From: Candidatus Latescibacterota bacterium
Lineage (GTDB): Bacteria; Latescibacterota; UBA2968
Length of the DNA: 64,000 nucleotides
Assembly (NCBI GenBank): GCA_965208125.1
Contig: OZ242320.1
Coordinates: 2,400,001 to 2,464,000, forward strand
Direction of reading: 5' to 3'
The notes below the pieces were generated by a model. The model did no database searches, had not been told where the DNA came from, and worked only from the letters and a program-made list of their open reading frames with translations. How positions within the stretch are numbered: position 1 is the first letter of the stretch; the number at the start of each line of letters is the position of its first letter. Positions 3,517-36,435 of this stretch are shown here, piece after piece. A program made the translations under genes and the position numbers.

Positions 3517-3517
3517 G

Positions 3518-4387
3518 TTACCTGTTGGTGTCTTTTGGGAGGTCGAGGTATTTGACAAAGGCCACTTCGTTGCGCGCTTCGTTGTAGATCAATTCGTCTG
3601 CGCTGGTTTTGACCATTAGCAGGCCAAAGCCGCCCGGGCGCAACCCCTGGTTTTCTCTGACGCTCATGTGGGCGATGGGATCGTCGGGGTTGTTGAGAGC
3701 CGCATGTTCGAGTTCATCCATGTCAAAGCCCGATCCGGGATCTGCTATGCGAAACATGAGCATGCGTTCAAAGCGGAGAAATGCGATTCGAACCTTTTTG
3801 CTCGGGTCGAGTTGCCCGCCCCATTCAATGGCATTGGCGAGGAGTTCGTAGAATGACATCGCGATGGTCTCGCGGAGGTCTTCGGGCAAGTCGGCTTCCA
3901 GTTGCATGACAAAATTGCGCATCCGTCCCGCTGATTTTTGATCACAGGGCACCAGAAGCTCAACCCAGTTTGGGGTTGCCGATGTCACTTCGATAATTGT
4001 TTCCTGGCGACTTGCGCCGAGGCCGTCCTGGACAATGCGTGTCAATTCCTGGGGGTCTATGGGTTTTGGGATATAGTGATATGCCTGTTCGCGGATTGCT
4101 TTGAGGAGGGTGTCTGAGGTGTCATCGGAGGTCATGACAATGACTGGCGGTGGTGAGGGCAGGGTTTTTACTTTTGACAATAATTCCAAACCGTTGAGTC
4201 CGGGCATCCATATATCTGTAAGTAGCAAGTCGAATGGGGTTTTGGCGATTCGGTCATAAGCCTTTTTCCCATCGGTTACTGTTTCTGTTGTGTACCCGGC
4301 ATCTTCGAGTATGGCTTCTACCAGCACTCTGGTTGGGCCGTCGTCTTCGGCGATCAGTATTTTGGACATGTCTGGTGCTCGGTTCAA
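3518..4387 (-). CDS. Response regulator fused to RsbW-type anti-sigma kinase (HATPase_c_2) domain
   Basis: REC: ILIAEDD, LLTDIWMPG, KP; C-terminal ELLANAIEWG, DPGSGFD, GGFGL. Confidence 0.85.
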   Translation of the reverse strand: MNRAPDMSKILIAEDDGPTRVLVEAILEDAGYTTETVTDGKKAYDRIAKTPFDLLLTDIWMPGLNGLELLSKVKTLPSPPPVIVMTSDDTSDTLLKAIREQAYHYIPKPIDPQELTRIVQDGLGASRQETIIEVTSATPNWVELLVPCDQKSAGRMRNFVMQLEADLPEDLRETIAMSFYELLANAIEWGGQLDPSKKVRIAFLRFERMLMFRIADPGSGFDMDELEHAALNNPDDPIAHMSVRENQGLRPGGFGLLMVKTSADELIYNEARNEVAFVKYLDLPKDTNR

Positions 4388-5115
4388 AAGGAATATGTGA
4401 GTTCTTTGAGTGCGTTTTGAACTGCGGATAACTCGCGTTCGAGTGCCTGGCAGGTTTCGGAAGCCTGGCTCAAGTTGTCCGTTTTACCCATTTGCTCGAG
4501 TGCGAAAGCTGTTTCGTATGCTGCTTTGGCGTCAAAATTGGCCACGGAACCCTTTAGCGCGTGGGCTGCCTGGCGCAGGTCTTCGGGCGATTGCTGGTCA
4601 ATTGCCCGATGCAATGCGGCGATATGGTCGGGTAATTCTTTTAGGAAAACATCTACCATTTTTTTAAAAATTTGTTTTCTGCCACCTACCCGTGTCATGA
4701 TACCATCAATGTCAACAGGAGGTGTTTGGGAAGCGGCAGGCACATTCAAATTTTGCAAGACGGCAACGAGAAGGTCTGCGCGGACAGGGCGGATTAGCGT
4801 TGCTGTGGCACCTGCGTTGAGACAGGGTTGATCGTATTTTTCGTGTGATACGAGACCAATAATGGGAATGCCCGATTGCGCCCGCGCAATTTGTTGTTCA
4901 ATATTTTCACACTCATCTATGTCGATCATCGCGAAACGGTAAGACAGGGCTTTCTCGGGTAGTTCGGAAACCGCCACAACCCGATAGCCTTTTTGCTCGA
5001 GGAGCGCGTAGAGCAGGTGGCGATGGATGGGGTTGCGGTCTATAATGAGCGCGTCGCAAGATGTTGGGAGATCGGCCATCGAATCTGACTCCAGGAATGT
5101 GAAAAAATCATCCAC
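4384..5115 (-). CDS. Degenerate receiver + Hpt phosphotransfer protein
   Basis: Weak REC at N-terminus; Hpt motif AAHALKGSVANF. Confidence 0.8.
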   Translation of the reverse strand: MDDFFTFLESDSMADLPTSCDALIIDRNPIHRHLLYALLEQKGYRVVAVSELPEKALSYRFAMIDIDECENIEQQIARAQSGIPIIGLVSHEKYDQPCLNAGATATLIRPVRADLLVAVLQNLNVPAASQTPPVDIDGIMTRVGGRKQIFKKMVDVFLKELPDHIAALHRAIDQQSPEDLRQAAHALKGSVANFDAKAAYETAFALEQMGKTDNLSQASETCQALERELSAVQNALKELTYSF

Positions 5116-32496: not shown

Positions 32497-33696
32497 TCAA
32501 AACTGCACCCACACACCTCTGCCTTGAAGGGCTGGAATGTGCGTATTGAGCGATGTGTCACTCAATGGGTTATTCCGTACCTCAACCACATCTCCACTGC
32601 CCAATCCCGTGTTTGCAATTAGAGGTGAAAGATCCGAGATGCTGTTGTCGGAAAGACCCAGCACTGTCAGGTTTGTCAGTCCTGAGAGGGCAGAGGCATC
32701 CGAGATGCTGTTGCTGTTAAGATACAGGTCTGTCAGGTTTGTCAGTCTGGAGAGGGCAGAGATATCCGAGATGCTGTTGCTGTAAAGATGCAGCCTTGTC
32801 AGGTTTGTCAGTCTGGAGAGGGCAGAGATATCCGAGATGCTGTTGCTGTAAAGACGCAACACTGTCAGGTTTGTCAGTCCAGAGAGGGCAGAGATATCCG
32901 AGATGCTGTTGGTGCCAAGATGCAGCTCTGTCAAGTTTGCCAGTCCAGAGAGGGCAGAGACATCCGAGATGCTGTTGGTGCCAAGATCCAGGTATGTCAG
33001 GTTTGTCAGTCTGGAGAGGGCAGAGACATCCGAGATGCTGTTGGTGAGAAGACGCAGTTCTGTCAGGTTTGTCAGTCCAGAGAGGGCAGAGATATCCGAG
33101 ATGCTGTTGGTGCCAAGATACAGGTCTGTCAGATTTGTCAGTCTGGAGAGGGCAGAGACATCCGAGATGCTGTTGTTGTGAAGATGCAGCCTTGTCAGGT
33201 TTGTCAGTCCAGAGAGGGCAGAGACATCCGAGATGCTGTTGCTGTAAAGATACAGGTCTGTCAGACCCGTTGCAAACTCAAGCCCGGTCAAGTCGCTGAT
33301 ATTCTTACGCGTCGCTGCAAGCCTGGTCAAGCTCGCCATCTCTTCTCTGCTGATCGGCGCACTACTCGCCTTGTCCAGGCTGTCTGCGATTACCGCACGC
33401 AGGTTCGCATCGCGAATGGCAACCGAGCCGAAGTAGCTGGTGAAACTCAGAAAATCGCCAAAGCCAACCGCACCATCGCTGTCCAGATCATACTTCGCGT
33501 CATATCTCCCATCGCCCTGACGCGCTCCAAACTGATCTACAAACGCCAAAAAGTCGGCAAAATCCACAACGCCATTGCCGTCAAAGTCGGCGTCTGCCGC
33601 GGTTGGGGTTTGTGCAGAGGCAGGCCCCGCCATCAGAAGCAGGGCGAGAAACACAACAGCGAGCGACCCTTCTCTGTAAAAGTTTTTGCGTTTCAT
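32497..33696 (-). CDS. Secreted internalin-type LRR protein with EF-hand/dockerin-like N-domain
   Basis: Signal peptide; ADFDGNGVVDFADFL and DLDSDGAVGFGDFL; ten 22-aa LTxLxLxxNSISDxSALSxLTN repeats. Confidence 0.92.
   Translation of the reverse strand: MKRKNFYREGSLAVVFLALLLMAGPASAQTPTAADADFDGNGVVDFADFLAFVDQFGARQGDGRYDAKYDLDSDGAVGFGDFLSFTSYFGSVAIRDANLRAVIADSLDKASSAPISREEMASLTRLAATRKNISDLTGLEFATGLTDLYLYSNSISDVSALSGLTNLTRLHLHNNSISDVSALSRLTNLTDLYLGTNSISDISALSGLTNLTELRLLTNSISDVSALSRLTNLTYLDLGTNSISDVSALSGLANLTELHLGTNSISDISALSGLTNLTVLRLYSNSISDISALSRLTNLTRLHLYSNSISDISALSRLTNLTDLYLNSNSISDASALSGLTNLTVLGLSDNSISDLSPLIANTGLGSGDVVEVRNNPLSDTSLNTHIPALQGRGVWVQF
32630..33263. repeat. 66-bp tandem repeats encoding LRRs
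   Basis: Near-identical units containing TCCGAGATGCTGTTG every 66 bp. Confidence 0.9.
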
Positions 33697-33877
33697 GTTT
33701 CCTCTTATACATACGTTTGTGTCAACTTACAAAAAAATTTCTTCTTGTAAAGCCTATTTTAGCACGACGCTGGGAAGCCATCAGCTTTCAGCGATCAGCA
33801 CCCCCAATCACCCCAAGGCCTTATGTTATTTGTTTTGCTAACTGCTGACTGACCGCTAATTGGTATTTAAAGATAAG

Positions 33878-34077
33878 ATCCGAAAAGAGACGCGGAGCCT
33901 GAAGGCTTTCTGGCTATGAGACTTTGTTTGCTCTGAGGTTTGATGCTCAATGGTCTGGTGCTTTGCCGGACGTTATGAGCGTCACCCCCTCAAGAGGATG
34001 GCTTTTACAGATACCATGGTCTGGGCTATGCTCCGTCACCGAAGCAGTCGCACTTGCTCCCCTGTCTCCTTCCGGAT
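33878..34077 (-). ncRNA. Candidate 200-nt structured RNA downstream of the DIP1984-like gene
   Basis: 5' AUCCGGAAGGAGAC..GGAGC pairs with 3' GCUCC..GUCUCUUUUCGGAU; internal hairpins include UGCUUCG-GUGA-CGGAGCA. Confidence 0.6.
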
Positions 34078-34083
34078 TGGTGA

Positions 34084-34623
34084 TTACTGCTCGTCCTGAA
34101 AGGCTACGATCGCTTCAAAAGATGCTGCCCGTAGCTTTCTGTTTAACGCCCTAAAAGTCAACCGTACACTTTCAAGGTCCTGGACGCTGTCGGGATATGA
34201 CAATTCGTTGGGTTCCACAATGTCGCGGTCTTCTTTGTAGATTACCCGCTGGTATGCTGCATCCACGACTTGCGTGTGAAGTTCGCCGATTTGCACATTC
34301 AAGCCTTTTCGCAATTCCAGCGCCTCGTTGAGATTGATGGTGTCGCCATCGTGTTCCATCTGGTGCTGAAAATTGGTCTGCTGAATGGCACTGTTGAGCT
34401 TGCGCCGTTTGTATTCCAGTGCTTTGATCTGGTCACGCACTTCAGTGGTGTCAAACCCGGGACTGGGACGATATTGACCCTCTTCGTCGCGATTGAAAAA
34501 TGTTCGATTGCGATTTTGCCTGGTTTCTGACAGGCAATCTTTCAGGGTTTTAATTCTGGCCTCGTATTCAGCTCTGAGTTCCAGAGCTTCGTAGAGGTAG
34601 AGTTTGTTGTTTTCGTCTGGCAT
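34084..34623 (-). CDS. DIP1984/DUF6847 (septicolysin-like) helical protein
   Basis: Internally duplicated LxEALELR motif followed by RKLNSAIQQTNF / RALNRKLRAASF; AGGAAGGAG RBS. Confidence 0.65.
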   Translation of the reverse strand: MPDENNKLYLYEALELRAEYEARIKTLKDCLSETRQNRNRTFFNRDEEGQYRPSPGFDTTEVRDQIKALEYKRRKLNSAIQQTNFQHQMEHDGDTINLNEALELRKGLNVQIGELHTQVVDAAYQRVIYKEDRDIVEPNELSYPDSVQDLESVRLTFRALNRKLRAASFEAIVAFQDEQ

Positions 34624-34750
34624 GTTTTCTCCTTCCTTTCTCCTCCCGTCATTTATGCATTTATGCATCGCTTTGGTGCAGTATCGGCTCTGACAAAGCT
34701 GAAAAGATAAAAGATTCAGAGAATTTGAAATTTTTTTAGAAAAATAAAAA

Positions 34751-34782
34751 ACGGGTAGAGAATTACGAGACTCTCTACCTGT
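34751..34782 (-). terminator. Hairpin downstream of the tRNA-Val fragment
   Basis: ACGGGTAGAG...CTCTACCTGT with A-tract on the left (U-tract on minus strand). Confidence 0.55.
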
Positions 34783-34797
34783 TATGCTAATTTTTCA

Positions 34798-34827
34798 TGG
34801 TGGGTAATACTGTACTTGGACCGGTGA
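34798..34827 (-). repeat. Degenerate 3' copy of tRNA-Val (att-like)
   Basis: TGGTGGGTAATACTGTACTTGGACCGGTGA vs tRNA TGGTGGGCGATACTGGACTTGAACCAGTGA: 25/30 identity, same orientation. Confidence 0.75.
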
Positions 34828-34909
34828 TTTTTTACCTGATCGTATGAAAAGTCAGGTTTCTGGAAAGTACCGCTCCTGAATCTAAACCACTCGCATTTTC
34901 TGAGATTCC

Positions 34910-35833
34910 TTATTCTTTTTTCCACGGACCACCGTCTTGCCATACTTGATTGTATTCCTCTCTTCTTGTGGCTGCAAGAAGGGGTGGAGCAAGAAAAGTG
35001 CTCAACGTTTCAATAAGTTCAGGAAGTTCCTGTGGGGCATCTGTCAGGTCGCTCCGTTCAAGAAAACTACGCCACTGCTCTGCTTTCCCCGGATATTCGG
35101 CAAATTGCTTATCCAGAGCGACCGGCTGTTCGTTGGGTAAGGGTATCCTTCGTCGCTCGAAAGTCCCCCGGATGGCCTGAGTTAGCACCAGCCCTTCAAA
35201 AGAAAATGTTCTGGCTATTAGCCAGAGGTCATAGAAATCCTTCATACGGCTATTTTGCATACCCAAGACAACCAGGGCATTCAGTTTTTCGGCGACGACC
35301 GTCTCAGGAGGATAGGCTCTGAGTTCGGGTGCAGGAAAATCCAGCAACCCCGGGTACAGGAGAGTAGTGGTCCTGGGTATTACCACGTCTCCAAATCCCA
35401 CGTCAATTTGCACCTGGAACCGTGCAGTTCCAAGCAAACAAGAGAGACGGATGCGATGACTCTCATAGACTGCATTATCTCGAATGGCTTGGACTCGAAC
35501 ACTTTCAGGGTCATAAAAAAGCCCGTCTGCCACCACATTTTCTCGACAGATTGCTTTAAAGACTTTTGCGATATGGTCATGGGAGGCTTCGCCATGGCCC
35601 AACAAATCCAGGTCTCGAGTTATACGATGAGCACTACCTGTCCAGGCGAAGAAAAGCAGGGCACCTTTGAGGATAAAACTGGAGCGAAATGGAGACTGGG
35701 ACAGACGGTAGAGGAATCTTTCAATGGCATATCGCAAGAAAATCTGATTGGGTTCTTCCCTTTTTTCTCTGCTCAGGTTTAAAAGTCGCTGATGGACGGA
35801 TACAGGTAGATTTTTGGGACGCGTTCTTTTCAT
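34910..35833 (-). CDS. AbiEii/AbiGii nucleotidyltransferase toxin (type IV TA)
   Basis: FILKGALL, TRDLDL, AEKL, NSRMKDFYD. Confidence 0.92.
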   Translation of the reverse strand: MKRTRPKNLPVSVHQRLLNLSREKREEPNQIFLRYAIERFLYRLSQSPFRSSFILKGALLFFAWTGSAHRITRDLDLLGHGEASHDHIAKVFKAICRENVVADGLFYDPESVRVQAIRDNAVYESHRIRLSCLLGTARFQVQIDVGFGDVVIPRTTTLLYPGLLDFPAPELRAYPPETVVAEKLNALVVLGMQNSRMKDFYDLWLIARTFSFEGLVLTQAIRGTFERRRIPLPNEQPVALDKQFAEYPGKAEQWRSFLERSDLTDAPQELPELIETLSTFLAPPLLAATRREEYNQVWQDGGPWKKE

Positions 35834-36435
35834 GCCACGATAGCTTCCATATAGGGCCGCATCACATTGGTCATGCGACAGACCTTTGCGAAGTGCCAGA
35901 GGTCGTCCATTGTGATGCGGCGGTCGCGGATGCATTCTTTCAACGCTTCAAGAGCGATGTCCAGGCCGATTTTGTTGCGGTATTTGAAGCAGTCTGCAAC
36001 TGTTTTGGCGGGGTTAAAAATCTGAACGGGAACGCCTTCAATCTGATATGTCTCGATCCCTTCAGTCAGTGCAACACCGGAGAACCGCATCACCCTCAGG
36101 GGAGGAAATTGCATCTTTGGCTTGGCTGCTCTGCGGTCAATGGCCATCCAGACCTGGTGTGGTAGCTGTGTGCCGATTTCGTGAAAGCTCAAAGCTGACA
36201 GCAGACAGATCACCCCGTGGGGAATGCGCTTTGCTACTTGCGCCAGCCCATAGTGTACCGAAATCTCGGCATTGGCTGCAATGTACAGGCCTCTTCCTTC
36301 CCGTCGCACCAGTCCTTTCTGATATAGCCGACGCAGATATTCGGGATGAAGGCCCCGGGACGTCAGATCGCAAACTCTCAAGAGACCTTGCTGTGCCAGT
36401 TCCAGAACTTGATTTTCTGGTGAATTTTTAGACAT
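35830..36435 (-). CDS. AbiEi-family antitoxin / transcriptional regulator
   Basis: GRGLY, ICLLSALSFH, KTVADCFKYRNKIG. Confidence 0.92.
   Translation of the reverse strand: MSKNSPENQVLELAQQGLLRVCDLTSRGLHPEYLRRLYQKGLVRREGRGLYIAANAEISVHYGLAQVAKRIPHGVICLLSALSFHEIGTQLPHQVWMAIDRRAAKPKMQFPPLRVMRFSGVALTEGIETYQIEGVPVQIFNPAKTVADCFKYRNKIGLDIALEALKECIRDRRITMDDLWHFAKVCRMTNVMRPYMEAIVA

Follow-up and report, generated by a model that had tools for sequence, protein, structure and literature searches.

The 64,000-nt stretch of a Candidatus Latescibacterota genome analysed here (assembly GCA_965208125.1, contig OZ242320.1, forward-strand positions 2,400,001 to 2,464,000; hereafter the window) carries on its minus strand a gene for a 179-amino-acid (aa) protein of the DIP1984 fold, P0001 (34084-34623, with the ATG at 34623 and the stop codon TAA at 34086-34084 included), and, after a spacer of 6 nt (34083-34078), a structured RNA on the same strand (33878-34077, from the first base of its extended closing helix P1 through the last base of that helix), which we call type 1. 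Comparison among genomes shows a near-obligate linkage of this widely distributed structured RNA to a distinct clade of DIP1984-fold proteins, and on the same comparison the conserved unit is the open reading frame (ORF) plus the RNA, about 750 nt in all. We consider that the gene and the RNA probably make up a self-contained ribonucleoprotein (RNP) cassette, in which oligomers of the protein bind a periodic loop of the RNA. A preliminary description of this DNA, made from its letters, had proposed a new system of a DIP1984-like gene coupled to a structured RNA, and this proposal now has strong support from linkage and covariation.

The linkage can be seen from the side of the gene as well as from that of the RNA. 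A scan for relatives, with one genome per species, gave 79 loci in Latescibacterota, Desulfobacterota, Spirochaetia, Verrucomicrobiota/Victivallales, Planctomycetota, Acidobacteriota, Chloroflexota and other groups, together with a few metagenome-assembled genomes (MAGs) labelled archaeal. These archaeal labels may be binning errors, because the RNA sequences of L032 and L047, the one from a MAG labelled Desulfatibia and the other from a MAG labelled Thermoplasmata archaeon, are identical. With 215 nt of the window as query, nhmmer matched each of the 72 downstream regions (that of the window is one of them), in 70 cases at E<=2.4e-4; a covariance model (CM), R1, matched the window (33869-34078, 171.5 bits) and 74 of the 79 related loci, the five misses being truncated gene fragments. 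Every complete gene among these loci has a downstream R1 match, which is aberrant in L056 (5' domain missing) and in L078 (40.3 bits). The core of P1 begins 3-29 nt past the stop codon in 64 of 72 loci; among the other eight, three lie farther off and five were missed by the search pattern. From the side of the RNA, a metagenome scan was seeded by a 20-nt RNA pattern, and 80 of the 118 stretches were analysed: the gene stands directly upstream on the same strand in 62 of the 67 loci with at least 560 nt upstream, while the five exceptions consist of one chance match in an unrelated ORF, two gene remnants and two orphan RNAs. Moreover, protein identity and RNA identity are correlated over 65 loci (Spearman 0.64 over 2080 non-independent pairs).

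The module is patchy even among close relatives. In the 5.75-Mb source genome the RNA occurs in a single copy by both BLAST and CM, and a dispersed repeat is ruled out in this way; among 60 related genomes R1 is found in precisely those nine that have the full-length gene, plus one remnant in G006, and the cassette is present in 9 of the 20 genomes of the genus. Upstream of the ORF there is no similarity past the genus level, so no conserved promoter or 5' untranslated region (UTR) was found; an all-against-all clustering of the ORFs at 80 loci gave no neighbour gene shared across clades, only clade-restricted neighbours, Pfam searches of 26 neighbours returned mixed families, and the genes downstream of the RNA vary from locus to locus. 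The sub-clade protein was absent from the plasmid collection, the phage collection and IMG/VR, and the RNA pattern from IMG/VR. Altogether, the cassette has the character of an accessory module that spreads horizontally and is easily lost.

The fold of the RNA is documented by energy as well as by covariation. The minimum free energy (MFE) structure of 33870-34083 (214 nt) has -74.1 kcal/mol and holds both closing helices, and its z score against dinucleotide shuffles (-58.3 +/- 4.2) is -3.8, with 0 of 200 shuffles as good; the RNA of about 200 nt with paired ends, which the preliminary description had placed 6 nt past the 179-aa gene, was thus correctly located. P1 is formed by the 5' strand AUCCGGAAGGAGAC (34064-34077) and the 3' strand GUCUCUUUUCGGAU (33878-33891), after which comes a U-rich stretch. 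Its 7-bp core (helix 1; AGGAGAC, 34070-34064) is 96.8% paired across the relatives with compensatory changes in 6 of 7 pairs, the lineage-specific extensions (34077-34071 in the window) covary freely, and a run of at least three T lies within 16 nt past the core in 56 of 77 RNAs. P2, of 5 bp, joins GGAGC (34056-34060) to GCUCC (33894-33898); here helices 2 and 3 are 99.7-100% paired, among 76 distinct rows AU is replaced by GC in 10 and CG by UA in 9, and an invariant GC/GC pair is a further conserved element of the fold. The hairpin P3 (34029-34046, UGCUUCG-GUGA-CGGAGCA, with a GNRA-type GUGA loop; helices 5 and 6) had already been drawn from the letters; it is real, with 7 of 7 pairs compensatory and 94.6-98.6% paired, and is the top covarying helix in an unbiased scan. 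Next follow pseudoknot 1 and P4 (33998-34023), where CAG (34023-34021) pairs with a CUG (34010-34008) inside the loop of P4, itself made of AUGGU (34017-34013) and GCCAU (34002-33998). Pseudoknot 1 (helix 7) is 100% paired, CAG/CUG being replaced by CGG/CCG in 8 rows and by AAG/CUU in 2, and three core pairs of helix 8 covary. The last structured part (33969-33987) contains P5 (GGG with CUC) and pseudoknot 2 (GACG, 33983-33980, with CGUC, 33972-33969); helix 9 is 91.6% and helix 10 78.5% paired, with compensatory changes at all pairs, and P5 and pseudoknot 2 were recovered independently by the unbiased covariation scan on alignment A4.

Two alignments lead to the same picture. On a MAFFT alignment of 49 sequences less than 93% identical, RNAalifold predicted 27 pairs, 22 of them compensatory. 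On the CM alignment, whose fit to the model's nested part favours such an outcome, the structure with the two pseudoknots added has 92.9% of 2637 cells paired; shifting the partners by 1-3 columns leaves 33-45%. Both sides have changed in 31 of 36 pairs, and the covariation score is 0.411 vs 0.149 shuffled, with 0 of 500 shuffles reaching the observed value. These helices come out again in the MAFFT result and in the unbiased helix scan, and so does the GAC/GUC arm of pseudoknot 2. Besides, near-invariant single-stranded and junction bases are found in the 5' domain. By covariation, then, the RNA is shown to fold into two stacked closing helices (P1 and P2), a GNRA-capped hairpin and two pseudoknots, and the downstream structure is conserved in homologues, as the preliminary description needed it to be. 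Of the smaller elements named there, the GACG/CGUC stem is conserved as one arm of pseudoknot 2, while the hairpin CAUCCUC-UUGA-GGGGGUG (58.9% paired vs 42-51% slid) and the pairing of a loop CUCA with a downstream UGAG (35.8% paired) are not conserved.

These data also bear on the suggestion that there is no RNA here at all, the segment being a DNA-level site (a miniature inverted-repeat transposable element (MITE), a recombination site or an attC-like site) or a small coding region, which we find scarcely credible. It is true that the ends show terminal inverted pairing, and that stop-free runs of at least 60 codons occur in 36 of 66 sequences, mostly antisense; such runs are expected anyway because of the A/C-rich composition. 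On the other side, compensatory changes touch 31 of the 36 pairs, and the internal sequence is highly conserved, which that of attC sites is not. The dispersed MITE once considered for this sequence is contradicted by the single genome copy, found with DNA and CM searches alike, and by the gene carried at 62 of 67 RNA-seeded loci. Moreover, G-U pairs exceed A-C pairs three to one (GU+UG 148 vs AC+CA 45), a pairing that works on one strand, and therefore the folded strand is the gene strand. The P1-to-P1 lengths are spread over the three mod-3 classes (31, 26 and 17), which argues against coding, and a coding region is ruled out by this spread together with the G-U strand bias.

P1/P2 close a loop of 58 nt (33905-33962, minus strand), which follows the structured domain, precedes the 3' strand of P2 and is rich in A and C and poor in U (A 39%, C 28%, G 19%, U 15%). 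The U-poor 3' half with periodic triplets had been noticed from the letters, and this observation can now be sharpened to eight slots 8 nt apart, each AGC or A-N-C. There are 5.18 AGC per tail vs 1.30 shuffled (67 distinct tails), a four-fold excess; successive AGCs are spaced by 8 nt in 98, by 9 nt in 21 and by 15-17 nt in 88 of 280 cases, and in 61 of 70 RNAs the first and the last AGC are 57-60 nt apart. When the tails are walked slot by slot, 56 of 70 RNAs have eight slots and there are 3.60 AGC per RNA, as compared with 0.67 shuffled and a maximum of 0.91 in 200 shuffles. The share of AGC is 71-96% in slots 1, 5 and 8 and 54% in slot 3, and the alternation from slot to slot suggests, at the level of sequence, a 16-nt super-period; in Spirochaetia AGC occupies all eight slots. 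Tandem Repeats Finder, run on 33700-34900, reported no tandem array except an 8-nt repeat in the gene's 5' UTR, CATTTATG x 2.4, at 34650-34668. We propose the loop with its eight triplets as a candidate protein-binding platform.

A second group of RNAs, type 2, makes this proposal more specific. They follow proteins 35-38% identical to P0001 (loci L090, L187, L149, L115, L136/L183, L122, L133 and L116), score 46-70 bits with R1, and are about 231-233 nt long, with a different middle domain while P1, P2 and P3 are kept. Their tails have per 70 nt 6.43 UAC, mostly as UUAC, and 0.71 AGC (7 distinct tails), as against 5.19 AGC and 0.58 UAC in type 1 (72 tails); of the intervals between UACs, 20 are of 7 nt and 5 of 8 nt. 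In the alignment of the proteins, clade-specific changes are seen at many otherwise invariant and often basic positions, for example RIKTLKDC vs HIGLLEGL, RPSP vs KEPA, VIYKE vs VIHKE and LNRKIRAA vs LVNQVHAA. The repeat motif and its spacing thus appear to switch together with the protein clade.

Such a switch is not what one would look for in a purely cis-acting element of the 3' UTR, namely a terminator, a stabiliser or an autoregulatory operator that forms no trans-acting RNP. This explanation, which we hold to be unlikely, would agree with the place of the RNA immediately past the stop codon, with the U-rich sequence after P1, with an RNA-library contig that spans gene and RNA, and with the terminating ribosome, which by its usual footprint would cover the 5' strand of P1 in most loci. 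On the other hand, a terminator needs far less than this RNA of about 200 nt has, with its GNRA loop, its two pseudoknots and its near-invariant unpaired bases, and gene-less copies of the RNA stay intact. For example, in the planctomycete locus L072, on a Candidatus Uabimicrobium chromosome, three tandem RNAs follow one gene (3517-3719, 4062-4269 and 4278-4483), each closing with a T-run; the last ~20 nt of the gene stand ahead of copy 2, which a palindromic insert separates from copy 1. Orphan full-length RNAs without an upstream gene are found at L164:1393-1599, L181:3880-4087, where the last codons of the gene are retained, and L115:809-1041; the L164 and L181 orphans and the extra L072 copies are intact at 161-180 bits.

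Variation of another kind has been seen at L056 (3516-3640), where the gene is intact and the RNA is reduced to P1/P2 and the AGC tail, with no pseudoknotted 5' domain and with the 5' strands of P1/P2 supplied by the last codons of the gene; a similar mini RNA stands at L043:3390-3525, where the gene is cut at about residue 143. Separable parts as in L056, together with the near-invariant junction nucleotides and the pseudoknotted core of the 5' domain, might speak for an RNA that is merely co-inherited with the gene and acts without its product, be it as a ribozyme or by sensing a ligand or metabolite. We give this little credence: the linkage is near-obligate in a wide range of phyla and no further gene is conserved with it, the motif of the tail tracks the protein clade, and no ribozyme or riboswitch of Rfam matched at E<=10.

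As for the protein, the ORF of P0001 is preceded by a good Shine-Dalgarno sequence, and the product has an internal duplication marked by LYEALELR (residues 10-17) and LNEALELR (residues 98-105). Its match to Pfam DUF6847 (PF20935), 28.5 bits with a cut-off of 27, is just above the gathering threshold and covers residues 7-88 on profile positions 64-140 only, both halves of the protein aligning to the same part of the model; the family was matched in 17 of 17 relatives tested (best E 9.9e-9). The cut-off of 70 bits of NCBIfam DIP1984_fam (NF038048) was missed, at 26.9 bits and E 4.4e-6. An AlphaFold2 model (pLDDT 85.9) has a duplicated helix/beta-hairpin/helix unit, and the sole convincing fold match in the PDB is 3KDQ (Foldseek E 4.3e-4 to 6.8e-4; next E 0.2), a Corynebacterium diphtheriae protein of unknown function and the solved founding member of DIP1984; the superposition, with TM 0.66-0.70 by query and 0.76-0.81 by target, puts P0001 in the DIP1984 fold. 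A profile search of PDB sequences gave no match at E<=1. There are 665 relatives at E<=0.001 and 207 representatives at 50% identity among 1.84 billion proteins; among the matches listed nearly all have 175-181 aa, and conservation is very strong. No longer or fused forms of the protein were found, which is weak evidence. The group of P0001 is a distinct sub-clade of 175-181 aa; the earlier assignment as DIP1984/DUF6847-like is borne out by Pfam and by the fold, while the word 'typical' has to be qualified in view of the narrow Pfam match and the missed NCBIfam cut-off.

No other family was recognised. PADLOC gave no match for P0001; neither ToxN/AbiQ, CptN, TenpN nor any other nuclease family was found by Pfam in P0001 and 16 relatives or by PADLOC; and the TRAP and HutP families and folds are absent from the Pfam matches and from the Foldseek PDB matches. 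One PHROGs family of unknown function was matched at E 1e-4. A look-alike in the Atlas, 'Siphovirus Gp157', was dropped, as Pfam on 17 members gave no support and BFVD matched weakly only (E>=1e-3). Modelled in four copies, the protein gave a symmetric homodimer interface with ipSAE 0.56 in 2 of 3 runs, the best control reaching 0.11; this mark is attained by 20 of 30 solved homo-pairs and by 1 of 23 single chains, in a calibration with two copies where the job had four. The contact agreement of the homodimer runs is at least 6% and the partner pLDDT at least 70. A symmetric homodimer of P0001 is accordingly supported by modelling.

Whether RNA coupling extends to the rest of the superfamily can be judged from the canonical genes. 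The gene is held by 18 of 301 sampled Chloroflexota genomes, and with one unpublished genome left out 17 loci were analysed together with L099 and L100 from the phylum of the window, 19 in total. R1 has no match at L099 and L100, which encode canonical DIP1984 proteins of 152 aa. In 15 of the 19 canonical loci (those from Chloroflexota lie within L229-L247) a third RNA element of about 210-270 nt follows on the same strand; its invariant anchors are GGUAG and CUACC, together with a G-rich block. Covariation is seen in its long-range helices, where 13 of 19 predicted pairs are compensatory in 12 sequences, and its tail has 5.67 GCAC/UUAC-type (K-Y-A-Y) repeats vs 1.89 shuffled, at a spacing of 7; no Rfam family was matched in 16 canonical loci. 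At L099 and L100 these anchors are absent, and there is a conserved stretch of ~180 nt, ~30-210 nt past the stop and 86% identical, with a tRNA T-arm-like motif, in which ARAGORN found no tRNA or tmRNA and Rfam nothing. The anchors of the third RNA are also seen past a DIP1984 gene of a Picosynechococcus plasmid (L249), and on plasmids of Acinetobacter lwoffii (L250) and Enterococcus faecium (L251) ~300 nt of unannotated 3' DNA have a long-range stem or UAC repeats, each being a single sequence.

Because canonical genes carry an RNA element of their own, RNA coupling seems to belong to the superfamily as a whole, the repeats differing from clade to clade. As a tentative reading, to which we give somewhat less than even credit, all DIP1984/DUF6847 proteins may be RNA-binding proteins, each with a cis-linked 3' RNA that has a long closing helix and about eight clade-specific motifs, namely AGC at 8 nt, UUAC at 7 nt and GCAC/UUAC at 7 nt. 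The superfamily comprises thousands of genes, including those called 'septicolysin' on Acinetobacter, Enterococcus and cyanobacterial plasmids.

The mechanism that we favour for the cassette can be described as follows. The gene and the RNA would be co-transcribed, the RNA being the 3' part of the mRNA, with an end at the long P1 helix and the U-rich tract. The internally duplicated helix/beta-hairpin protein would dimerise, as modelled, and would bind the triplets of the loop, for which the simplest count is four protomers times two repeats, that is, eight sites; the protein may wrap the loop or the loop the protein, as in TRAP and HutP. The structured 5' domain may have a separate role, such as nucleation, processing or ligand sensing. 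As possible outputs, the RNA may neutralise the protein, or the RNP may have a defence function.

The model of TRAP and HutP deserves attention. In Bacillus, TRAP on the trp leader and HutP on the hut mRNA are homo-oligomers that bind regularly spaced triplets, one per site, with 11 G/UAG repeats for TRAP and UAG repeats with 4-nt spacers for HutP. The cassette RNA is like these targets in presenting an unpaired and fixed number of regular triplets, eight A-N-C/AGC slots at 8 nt. It differs in that the fold of P0001 is DIP1984-like, helical with beta-hairpins; that the RNA is found 3' of the gene for the protein itself, rather than in a regulated operon's 5' leader where it would control a terminator; and that the repeat tract is looped out by long helices and joined to a pseudoknotted domain. 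A TRAP-like oligomer on periodic sites had been put forward in the preliminary description, and the clade-linked motif switch, the fixed number of slots and the modelled homodimer speak for it indirectly, the binding itself being putative.

Several points weigh against this picture of an oligomer on the loop. On the side of the RNA, the motif switch is based on related sequences that give 7 distinct type 2 tails; AGC fills slots 2 and 4 in 27-30% only, with ACC or AAC in the rest; the tail could be partly paired in GC-rich lineages; the mini RNA of L056 beside its intact gene implies that the 5' domain is dispensable or that the locus is decaying; and contigs from RNA libraries cannot establish transcription, transcript ends or abundance. 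On the side of the protein, no recognised RNA-binding domain is present and the isoelectric point spans 5.1 to 8.5; the third run of the complex model scored ipSAE 0.01, and the model gave the dimer interface only, no tetramer or ring. Furthermore, conservation alone marks no RNA surface, because many conserved residues sit in the modelled dimer interface.

Other protein-linked RNAs offer further comparisons. The Ro (Rsr) protein with Y RNA, OLE with OapA/B and the DUF3800-associated motifs are protein-linked bacterial RNAs, and the cassette resembles them in the long closing stem made from the RNA ends and in being encoded beside a presumed partner gene; it differs in that protein folds and RNA architectures are unrelated, and its RNA has no Rfam match. 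Canonical DIP1984/DUF6847 proteins (PF20935, NF038048, 3KDQ; sometimes annotated 'septicolysin') share the fold and an RNA with a periodic tail, and differ in length, ~150 aa vs 175-181 aa in the sub-clade, and in the lack of R1 matches at their loci. In toxin-antitoxin (TA) systems of type III (ToxIN, CptIN, TenpIN), as excerpts of two papers describe them, the toxin is an endoribonuclease and the antitoxin consists of ~36-nt tandem repeats upstream (PMC8860590, PMC13682666). The likeness lies in a two-part make-up, a protein with a non-coding RNA that are expected to join into a closed RNP, and in a patchy distribution often beside TA or defence genes. The defining features of type III TA are nevertheless lacking, since the cassette has no detected endoribonuclease family and its RNA is a single structured one of ~200 nt, downstream and with no tandem repeat.

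A type III-like TA or abortive infection system in a looser sense, in which free protein is harmful and the eight sites of the RNA sequester it, is possible, if on the doubtful side; a loss of transcription, for example upon phage infection, would then free the protein. This reading would refine the RNP cassette and does not exclude it. In its favour, protein and non-coding RNA form a cassette without any other conserved partner, orphan RNAs exist while complete genes without an R1 match do not (the RNA being aberrant in L056 and L078), and the RNA can be in triplicate after one gene, as in L072. The neighbours are often of TA, defence or mobilome kind, such as AbiEi/AbiEii, DUF4143 ATPases, Xre helix-turn-helix proteins, IS200-like elements and a YhcG nuclease. 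The distribution is patchy, at 9 of 20 genomes of the genus, and leaves deletion remnants: at G007:C25 ~10807 and G017:C1:4730295-4730581 only the first 40-45 codons are left and the rest of the gene and the RNA are deleted (in window terms from ~34496 to 33859), and at G006:C1:2134533-2134739 (L098:3034-3240) a partial RNA remains (48.7 bits) and the gene is gone. On the other side stand the lack of a PADLOC match, the lack of a nuclease family of ToxN/CptN/TenpN or other type, and the absence of the sub-clade protein from the phage, IMG/VR and plasmid collections; some neighbours are housekeeping genes, such as those for aspartyl-tRNA synthetase and adenosine deaminase. Moreover, the RNA has no tandem array and is not upstream of the gene behind a terminator; because it is downstream and no array, an excess of RNA over protein is not built in. 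Altogether a toxin-antidote or defence logic agrees with the accessory behaviour, with the neighbours and with the finding that RNAs occur as orphans while no complete gene is without an RNA.

In the window, a complete AbiE pair with overlapping ORFs, AbiEii (341 aa) and AbiEi (201 aa), lies directly upstream of the cassette (34910-36435, minus strand), in agreement with what had been read from the letters; in sister genomes 2-3 kb of other DNA separate the pair from the cassette. A terminator-like hairpin with a T-run 3' of AbiEii (34754-34779, minus strand) bounds the presumed transcription unit of gene and RNA upstream, and the block kept within the genus begins near 34706-34795. On the other side of the cassette, at 32497-33696 (minus strand), is a gene for a 399-aa secreted-looking leucine-rich-repeat protein with dockerin/EF-hand-like N-terminal repeats, of which many paralogues with 65-87% DNA identity are dispersed in the source genome and its sisters. 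Contigs with the cassette region are present in four metatranscriptome libraries from four studies; one of 759 nt spans 33854-34608, bridging the junction of gene and RNA with nothing beyond, and this contig, weak evidence as it is, is compatible with co-transcription. Uncovered parts, contig ends and depth differences (24.6 vs 12.9 in X5) of such contigs were not used as evidence, nor were the small-share runs X6 and X9-X14.

The RNA is rated as new because DUF6847 has no paper in the searched literature and no family of Rfam 15 matches. In a cmscan of the whole window at the gathering threshold only two tRNAs elsewhere were reported, and on 33600-34900 at E<=10 there was nothing on the RNA, 6S RNA included, which had been named beforehand as a possible identity. 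A full-text search found no paper on DUF6847; DIP1984 is mentioned once and incidentally, in a passage of PMC10889530; and no description of the RNA was found at the level of titles and abstract openings.

In summary, DIP1984/DUF6847 is a large family with a structure, 3KDQ, and with no known function, for which an RNA partner is the first concrete and testable biochemical hypothesis. At least three new structured RNA classes outside Rfam 15 come with it, and the switch between AGC, UUAC and GCAC among clades is natural material for specificity swaps. A compact cassette of ~750 nt, with one small protein and one RNA in a defined stoichiometry, may serve as a simple model of RNP assembly; if it is a TA or defence module, it would be one of a new type. 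If the reading for the whole superfamily is true, a widespread and unrecognised class of self-assembling RNP cassettes would emerge, which could be RNA-neutralised toxin or defence modules or RNA-scaffolded protein assemblies.

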